Virus record (IMG/VR): IMGVR_UViG_2663763286_000009
Location: 1-6,746 of that record
DNA: 6,746 bases
Reading direction: 5' to 3' (one strand)
Origin: a virus
Taxonomy: Duplodnaviria > Heunggongvirae > Uroviricota > Caudoviricetes
Shown here in pieces: positions 3,078-3,120 of this stretch (the first letter of the stretch is position 1; the number at the start of each line of letters is the position of its first letter). The translations under genes were made by a program, and so were the position numbers. A model generated the notes under the pieces. That model was given only the letters and a program-made list of their open reading frames with translations. It made no database searches and was not told where the DNA came from.

Positions 3078-3108
3078 AAATATTAGCCCTACTAATTTTA
3101 AAGATCAA
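3078..3108 (-). promoter_or_regulatory. Sigma70-type promoter for the ydaS-ydaT-ydaU-ydaV operon, with an overlapping operator-like element
   Basis: Read on the minus strand: -35 TTGATC (3108-3103), 17-nt spacer, -10 TAATAT (3085-3080). A 23-bp imperfect palindrome (3078-3100: AAATATTAG cccta CTAATTTTA on the plus strand) covers the spacer and -10. Confidence 0.45.
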
Positions 3109-3120
3109 TAGTCAGACTAT
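3108..3120. promoter_or_regulatory. Perfect 13-bp palindrome ATAGTCaGACTAT between the divergent promoters; candidate operator
   Basis: 6-bp arms ATAGTC/GACTAT around a single central base. Abuts the -35 of the ydaS promoter and lies in the spacer of the putative racR promoter. Confidence 0.4.

Follow-up and report, generated by a model that had tools for sequence, protein, structure and literature searches.

A palindrome in the divergent repressor-ydaS region of a Rac-like prophage as the probable core of a lambda-type middle operator

Results

Gene content and predicted promoters of the immunity region

The window, i.e. the whole stretch of 6,746 nucleotides that was analysed, matched a prophage of E. 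coli O157:H7 strain 2571 with 100% identity. Its minus strand held a ydaS-family HTH gene (2774-3049), ydaT (2368-2790) and replication genes. On the plus strand, the gene for a 153-aa HTH repressor (3157-3618) was followed by an early region with kilR, ydaE and, past the window end, recE. The divergent genes and the features between them were:

2774-3049, minus strand: ydaS-like Cro analogue of 91 aa with Pfam YdaS_toxin and HTH_3 (RefSeq annotation)
3080-3108, minus strand: predicted ydaS (PR-like) promoter, read from the sequence, with -35 TTGATC (3108-3103), a 17-nt spacer and -10 TAATAT (3085-3080)
3108-3120: perfect 13-bp palindrome ATAGTCaGACTAT as initially reported, lying within site B described below
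3122-3157, plus strand: predicted repressor (PRM-like) promoter with -35 TTTGAT/TTGATA (3122-3128) and -10 TAAACT (3145-3150)
3157-3618, plus strand: repressor gene, 153 aa, with a lambda-CI-like HTH N-terminal domain and a DicA-like C-terminal tail

The predicted ydaS promoter scored under the threshold in a consensus promoter scan. It is the positional homologue of PydaST of K-12, which was experimentally mapped as TTGACA-18-TAATAT (PMC11879457), and both of its hexamers were kept in most homologues. For the repressor promoter, the consensus scan picked up TTGATA-16-TAAACT, and the -10 was kept among Rac-like homologues. The predicted transcript start coincided with the A of the repressor ATG (3157), corresponding to a leaderless mRNA, and no Shine-Dalgarno sequence was found upstream of this ATG. 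Leaderless repressor mRNAs have been reported for K-12 racR and for paaR2 (PMC9638921, PMC8630535).

Repressor and YdaS proteins

The repressor showed a Pfam match to HTH_3, and a Peptidase_S24 domain was absent from the 153-aa protein according to Pfam. In phmmer searches, the N-terminal domain matched that of lambda CI (PDB 3kz3, 1lmb and 1rio) with E values of 3e-4 to 7e-3, and by this sequence similarity it is homologous to the lambda domain. The AlphaFold model showed five confidently predicted helices in the N-terminal domain and placed the recognition helix at residues 44-51 (pLDDT >80); confidence was low for the C-terminal domain. Gln44 aligned with Gln44 of lambda CI, and E33/E37 aligned with lambda E34/D38, the acidic pair by which lambda CI contacts sigma. 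All nine homologues examined had E or D at both of these positions. The last 42 residues resembled the tail of DicA, with 38% identity over 42 aa, and BLASTP gave no alignment between the N-terminal domain and DicA. The protein thus represents a mosaic of a lambda-CI-like N-terminal domain and a DicA-like tail, yet the locus is otherwise Rac-like. It was 100% identical to a protein annotated as 'dicA' in the LT-II phage Rac-SA53. No match to K-12 RacR was obtained by BLASTP at E <= 10, and the name racR given to the gene in the initial annotation is therefore wrong. An S24 domain was found in the repressors of the related Stx2 phage and of most environmental contigs introduced below, but not in P0023, encoded on L130/L131; its absence from the window protein bears on the induction mechanism and not on the operator. 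The ydaS-like protein matched the PDB Cro entries 8c7k and 8co2.

The palindrome and its chance level

Positions 3108-3120 read ATAGTCAGACTAT, with two perfect 6-nt arms and a single A in the centre, and the 13-bp inverted repeat was thus present as initially described. Its location had been given as between the -35 of ydaS and the -10 of racR. This was loosely right; more exactly, the palindrome occupies the gap between the two divergent predicted -35 boxes, and base 3108 is common to the palindrome and the predicted ydaS -35. The dyad symmetry ended at 13 bp, since the pairs 3107/3121, 3106/3122 and 3105/3123 were non-complementary. The inverted ATCAA/TTGAT on either side is merely the two predicted -35 boxes.

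Perfect 6-n1-6 palindromes occurred three times in the window, where 1.66 were expected from first-order Markov resampling of the window. For the 101-nt intergenic stretch 3056-3156 (31% G+C), the probability of at least one palindrome with a 1-nt spacer was approximately 0.045, rising to 0.17-0.28 when the spacer length was free. Being near chance level, the palindrome is on its own weak evidence. The hexamer GACTAT occurred four times on both strands of the window, and two of these occurrences were the arms of the palindrome itself. The expectation was 1.86, and 24 of 200 shuffles reached four, so that the lone half-site noted earlier at 5030-5035 was at chance level. A second copy of the palindrome with up to three mismatches was not present at pL or in any regulatory region of the window. 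A hairpin or cruciform was rejected, as the single-stranded DNA fold of 3098-3130 reached only -2.6 kcal/mol (z -0.85). No known RNA families were detected in the window, and the palindrome sequence was not found in the literature searched.

Three operator-like sites and related sites at the pL-like promoter

The intergenic region contained three 17-bp sites of the form 6-N5-6, with centres at 3089, 3114 and 3138 and spacings of 25 and 24 bp:

3081-3097: site A, OR1 analogue, TATTAG-CCCTA-CTAATT, over the spacer and -10 of the predicted ydaS promoter
3106-3122: site B, proposed OR2 analogue, CAATAG-TCAGA-CTATCT, centre 3114, with the 13-bp palindrome as its core
3130-3146: site C, OR3 analogue, TATTGG-TAAAA-CAAATA, between the -35 and -10 of the predicted repressor promoter

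Site A occurred in every homologue, -66 to -70 from the repressor ATG. Site C lay at -19 in every Rac-like homologue, with a right half that co-varied with the right half of A within each phage. Site B was centred at -43 from the repressor ATG and predicted start and at about -41 from the predicted ydaS start, and it overlapped the predicted ydaS -35 by 3 bp, the TTG of this -35 forming the end of B. Compared to the A/C consensus TATTAG, its halves agreed at only four and three of six positions. Its match to A (8 of 12) was at the level expected by chance for the best of about 30 nearby windows.

Operator-like sites were also present on the other side of the repressor gene:

3775-3803: predicted pL-like promoter, TTGACT (3775-3780)-17-TAATAT (3798-3803)
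3786-3802: OL1 analogue, TATACG-TGTCA-CTAATA, over the -10 of the pL-like promoter
3761-3777: candidate OL2 analogue, AATACG-CCTTG-CTGTTG, 25 bp from OL1 and overlapping the pL -35 by 3 nt, placed by inference only

The register of OL1 relative to the pL -10 equalled that of site A relative to the ydaS -10. A search of the window for TATTAG-N5-CTAATA with up to two mismatches returned A, C and OL1 and nothing else, i.e. three matches against 0.15 expected. In every phage examined, an operator-like copy (OL) of the phage's own A/C site was located downstream of the repressor gene, 120-180 bp past the stop codon. The OL2 candidate had one good half-site only; its distal half was identical to that of OL1 at five of six positions, and a counterpart was seen in L077, L073, L068 and L076. 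When aligned on the promoters, the ydaS and pL-like promoters each had a second site 25 bp upstream that ended in the -35 TTG, and this register matches that of lambda OR2 relative to PR. Plain k-mer sharing between the OR and pL regions gave nothing above shuffled controls; the operators were recognisable only through comparison across phages.

The pL-like region (3700-3805) carried stacked promoter-like sites: TTGAAA-17-CAAAAT (3723), TTTACA-18-TATAAT (3734-3763, 11 of 12 positions matching) and TTGACT-17-TAATAT (3775-3803). An extra TATTAG half-site was located at 3709-3714 on the minus strand. Just past the repressor stop codon, a stem-loop with a downstream T run (AAAAAAAAACCGACGTCTTAGTCGGTTTTTTTT) at 3645-3680 looked like a bidirectional intrinsic terminator; the terminator scan gave no call for it.

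Conservation across phage lineages

Nine Rac-like homologues with repressor identities of 58-92% were found in Hafnia, Serratia, Enterobacter and metagenomes. Their intergenic regions measured 104-107 bp, with site A at -66 to -68. In the Enterobacter homologue, CAATAG-TCAAA-CTATCT was retained despite diverged flanking spacers. More broadly, seven phage lineages with the repressor helix QG[TA]VSQ retained all three sites, with site B in forms such as CAATAG-TCTAG-CTATTT, CAACAG-TCAGA-CTACTT and CAATCG-TCAGA-CTGCTT. Four environmental contigs encoded repressors with the identical helix ESQGTVSQYLNGKIP, three of them with an S24 domain. Here, site A was TATTAG-TCCGA-CTGATT and site C AAATAG-N5-CTAATA, and site B read CAACAG-TCAGA-CTACTT, CAATCG-TCAGA-CTGCTT, CAACAG-TCCCG-CTGCTT or CAACAG-TCTCA-CTGCTT.

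In the alignment of the seven lineages, the invariant columns numbered 8 of 17 in A, 9 of 17 in B and 7 of 17 in C, versus 0 of 8 and 0 of 7 in the two spacers. Sites A, B and C together held 24 of the 26 invariant intergenic columns (hypergeometric P 6e-6, for seven lineages of which several are interrelated). Pooling the half-sites of all three operators yielded the consensus nAnYAG, with A2 and G6 each in 43 of 48 half-sites. The two halves of site B, CAATAG and AGATAG, fit this consensus. The conserved B unit was 17 bp in length, CAAyAG-N5-CTryyT. The initial annotation had proposed that two different DNA-binding proteins might act here, since the palindrome differs from the AT-rich operator-like elements. 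This proposal was not supported: the B halves follow the sequence common to all three operators, and halves of the 'ATAG' type also occurred outside B, with AAATAG in site C of further lineages. Site B can thus be explained without a second binding protein. By comparison, the earlier suggestion that the palindrome takes the position of a switch operator held up: it lies inside a 17-bp site that is placed like lambda OR2 and kept in seven lineages.

In homologues with a QSTVSH helix, the left half of B became CAATAC alongside TATTAC/TATTAA in A and C. The central site was hard to recognise in L077, L073, L070 and this QSTVSH group. Four Hafnia-type loci (L068, L075, L076 and L078) had a conserved non-palindromic block, CAATAC-N5-TCAGTT, at about -35 to -45 from the repressor ATG in place of the palindrome; within it, ATCAGTTT was invariant and the right half was unlike the A/C half-sites of the same phages. 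Pseudomonas-type relatives (L003 and L061-L067) were uninformative as a comparison set, as they have another recognition helix and other operators.

Allelic variation among close relatives

The perfect palindrome was present in 18 of 66 loci from close relatives, 15 of which had the sequence of the window. The alleles were ATAGTCAGACTAT (15 loci), ATAGCCAGACTAT (31), ACAGTCAGACTAT (9), ACAGCCAGACTAT (3), ATAGTCAAACTAT (5), ACAGTCAGACTGT (1) and ATAGCCAGGCTAT (2). Among approximately 177 complete E. coli genomes with the region, 30 held the perfect allele and 135 held ATAGCCaGACTAT (ATAGCC). A scan of genome contigs for further loci added only E. albertii, and none of 11 extra loci from a metagenome scan had the perfect palindrome. 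Conservation of the palindrome in related prophages, named in the initial annotation as a check, was thus not found for the perfect form, which is absent from most close relatives. Perfect symmetry is peculiar to a minority allele and is not conserved.

In E. coli, site B formed a hot spot of polymorphism: five of the 13 palindrome positions varied, versus 0.14-0.20 per site at third codon positions (binomial P 0.047), and a T>C change at 3109 altered the TAG core in 13 of 66 loci. Within B, these polymorphisms were confined to a T/C exchange at half-site position 4 and to the five central base pairs; the lineages also differ from one another at these positions. Co-variation of the B alleles with the repressor or YdaS was not observed: the recognition-helix regions were unchanged across all alleles. 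The hot spot combined with constant recognition helices indicates that individual bases of B are weakly constrained. The arms of site A were nearly invariant, with three rare variants in one or two of 66 loci each, and all of its central 5 bp were polymorphic. In site C, one of 17 positions was polymorphic. The commonest allele of site A (3090C and 3091G; centre 3087-3091) formed a perfect 6-n3-6 palindrome of its own, ATTAGC-CCC-GCTAAT.

Two alleles, ACAGTCaGACTGT (L017 and one complete genome) and ATAGCCaGGCTAT (L039 and L060), carried mirror-image double changes on single-change backgrounds. The chance of two of three secondary events being mirror images was approximately 0.002-0.017. They could be due to selection for dyad symmetry or to template-switch mutation; either is compatible with an operator.

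Comparison with known systems

Among the closest known systems was the right operator of phage lambda, with a homologous repressor HTH domain and three 17-bp pseudo-symmetric sites 23-25 bp apart. In lambda, the spacings are 24 and 23 bp. The last bases of the middle lambda site are the TTG of the lytic -35, and its centre lies at about -42/-43 relative to the start of the repressor promoter. About 84 bp separate the divergent lambda starts, and the repressor is translated from a leaderless mRNA; in the prophage, the predicted divergent starts were at the same distance of about 84 bp, and a leaderless repressor mRNA is likewise predicted. Differences concerned the half-site (TATTAG/nAnYAG here, TATCAC in lambda), the repressor, which lacks the S24 self-cleavage domain and has a DicA-like tail, and the partners, with a YdaS-family protein as the Cro analogue and YdaT as the CII analogue.

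The Stx2-converting phage Lyz12581Vzw (Oslovirus) was similar in the recognition helix (QGAVSQ, compared to QGTVSQ here), in an N-terminal domain with 50% identity and in its three sites, with the middle one reading CAATAG-TCTAG-CTATTT and showing a T/C polymorphism in its left half. It differed in encoding a full CI with an S24 domain and a leadered cI with a Shine-Dalgarno sequence; its spacings were exactly 24 and 23 bp, and other central bases left it without a perfect palindrome. No experimental characterisation of its cI-cro region was found in the literature searched. In Stx2 phages of this type (L092-L098 and L123), the corresponding B' site was the most variable part of the cI-cro region, with the centres TCTAG, GCTAG and GCCAG, and the change CAATAG>CAACAG was present.

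The Rac prophage of K-12 shares the gene order repressor/ydaS-ydaT-ydaU-ydaV, a YdaT that is nearly identical over the residues read, a PydaS -10 of TAATAT and operators 25-26 bp apart. The K-12 RacR operators are (T/A)TAGGC-n3-GCCTA(T/A), and DNase I footprinting showed protection by RacR of inverted repeats of its own motif in the intergenic region (PMC9638921). One of them, centred at -61, adjoins the PydaST -35 exactly as site B does (TGTCAATAGGC vs GATCAATAGTC) and occupies the same place relative to this mapped element. By contrast, RacR had no detectable sequence similarity to the window repressor, the ATAG...CTAT spacing was N7 in K-12 and N5 here, and K-12 had an extra operator over the racR start codon. 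A K-12 RacR operator was therefore rejected as the identity of the palindrome: the window has ATAGTC-n1-GACTAT, with ATAG/CTAT cores 5 and not 7 nt apart, and no RacR homologue. In K-12 Rac (L090), RacR-type repeats were located at -87, -61, -36, 0 and +25 from the racR ATG, the first spacings being 26 and 25 bp. The -87 and -61 sites began with AAATATTAG and TCAATAG like A and B of the window, though the repressors are unrelated in sequence.

In the cryptic lambdoid prophage CP-933P, the PaaR2/YdaS switch has a repressor that is leaderless and non-cleavable, YdaS and YdaT as Cro and CII analogues, and operators that overlap both divergent promoters and recur at a PL-like promoter (PMC8630535). 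The window is of the same lambdoid type, with a non-cleavable repressor that is predicted to be leaderless, YdaS and YdaT in the same roles and proposed operators over both divergent promoters that probably recur at the PL-like promoter. CP-933P differs in having four 18-bp inverted repeats with the consensus half-site GTTTAGTAA and a toxin-antitoxin pair in the repressor operon. The PaaR2 operator GTTTAGTAA was absent from the intergenic region of the window, and its sole match with up to one mismatch, inside the repressor gene, was at chance level. With the Qin DicA/DicC system, the locus has in common the DicA-like repressor tail and the annotation of the identical Rac-SA53 protein; YdaS is not similar to DicC, and the dicA-dicC repeats, TGTTAGT...ACTAACA, differ from the operators described here.

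The palindrome had no match to the YdaT box, TTGATT-N6-AATCAA. A YdaT box with one mismatch (TTGATT-CATGAA-AATCAg, minus strand) covered the ydaT start codon at 2780-2797, a location shared with K-12 Rac; the reference site was solved for CP-933P YdaT. OxyR recognises units of ATAGnt-N3-anCTAT (ATAG-N7-CTAT) that are repeated at 10-bp phasing. An OxyR site was rejected, as the palindrome represents a single unit with N5 spacing and no second unit was found nearby.

Discussion

The evidence favours, with reasonable though not full confidence, the interpretation that a lambda-type three-site right operator of a Rac-like E. coli O157:H7 prophage has the palindrome at the core of its middle site, an OR2 analogue. 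The reading that fits site B best is a middle operator that is weaker and further from the consensus, serving the same repressor that is predicted to bind A and C as well as its Cro-like partner. The perfect 6-1-6 symmetry is then incidental, a chance property of one allele.

The comparisons establish the arrangement of the sequence elements, their conservation and the homology of the repressor N-terminal domain to lambda CI; from these we infer, by analogy with lambda, how the sites are bound and in which order, cooperativity and activation. Repressor dimers would occupy A, over the ydaS -10 and spacer, and B, over the ydaS -35, probably in a cooperative manner, and occupancy of both would shut off the ydaS-ydaT-replication operon. 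A dimer on B, centred at -43 of the leaderless repressor promoter, may also exert positive autoregulation via the acidic pair E33/E37; in lambda, CI bound to OR2 acts from the equivalent position, using sigma region 4 to activate PRM. Site C, inside the repressor promoter, may serve negative autoregulation and may be the preferred target of the Cro-like YdaS.

It is unlikely that the palindrome arose by chance in the 14-bp gap between back-to-back -35 boxes and has no function, with the apparent conservation arising from the promoters and shared ancestry. The palindrome alone is indeed near chance, its polymorphism density is at least that of synonymous sites, the perfect form is a minority allele and three of the nine invariant B columns (CAA) belong to the ydaS -35. 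However, the other six invariant columns (G, T, C, C, T and T) lie outside the -35, and both inter-operator spacers have none. The frame of B, A5/G6 and the C/T positions were kept across lineages whose intergenic regions are otherwise about 50% diverged, including environmental contigs and a short-tailed Stx phage. Moreover, the E. coli polymorphisms fall only where the lineages vary too, i.e. at half-site position 4 and in the central 5 bp.

A role as the target of another protein, such as the Cro-like YdaS, the CII-like YdaT or a host factor, possibly overlapping OR2, is improbable. In its favour, the B halves have A at position 3, where A and C mostly have T, and two palindrome-restoring double changes exist. 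The inner core AGTCAGACT was identical in the window, in L130 and, as GTCAGACT, in L127, and a pure spacer should drift. Furthermore, YdaT and OxyR both act on PydaST in K-12 (PMC11879457). Against these points stand the 'ATAG' halves in site C of other lineages and the failure of B to match the YdaT box, of which the sole good copy is the one at 2780-2797. The N5 spacing of B disagrees with the N7 of OxyR. Across the seven lineages, the recognition helices of the Cro-like proteins differ more than those of the repressors, yet B is kept, and the palindrome has no second copy at pL or elsewhere in the window. A single repressor, together with a Cro-like partner that would use the same sites as its lambda counterpart does, is enough to account for the data.

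There is likewise little probability that the middle operator is a deliberately fast-evolving tuning point or that its inner GTCaGAC core is read by a second factor. The former could reflect diversifying selection on OR2 affinity and hence on the induction threshold or hetero-immunity. In the Rac-like prophages and, independently, in the Stx2 phages, site B was the most polymorphic intergenic stretch; the TAG-to-CAG change recurred in both lineages, and mirror-image double changes restored the dyad symmetry. The inner core AGTCAGACT was identical in very distant phages.

Least probable is an origin of the symmetry in quasi-palindrome template switching, a known mutational mechanism in which one arm is 'corrected' against the other during replication: the mirror-image changes of ACAGTCaGACTGT and ATAGCCaGGCTAT would fit it, but the arms are short and their single-stranded fold weak, the commonest allele stays imperfect (135 genomes), and the cross-lineage conservation of the asymmetric block CAAyAGTC...CT is left unexplained.

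For the middle-operator interpretation, the switch architecture itself is classical and does not reveal a new regulatory principle, whereas the immunity type and its operators appear to be undescribed in the literature searched. About 3% of complete E. coli genomes carried this immunity type, which is found in O157:H7 and in the LT-II toxin phage Rac-SA53. The results correct the habit of naming every Rac-like repressor 'RacR'. If the interpretation is correct, it would provide an operator map, with A, B and C at OR, OL1 and possibly OL2, for an uncharacterised immunity type, and a half-site, TATTAG/nAnYAG, that is read by the QG[TA]VSQ recognition helix. The operator type would then be common to a group of Stx2-converting phages, and the map could guide work on prophage induction in pathogenic E. 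coli.
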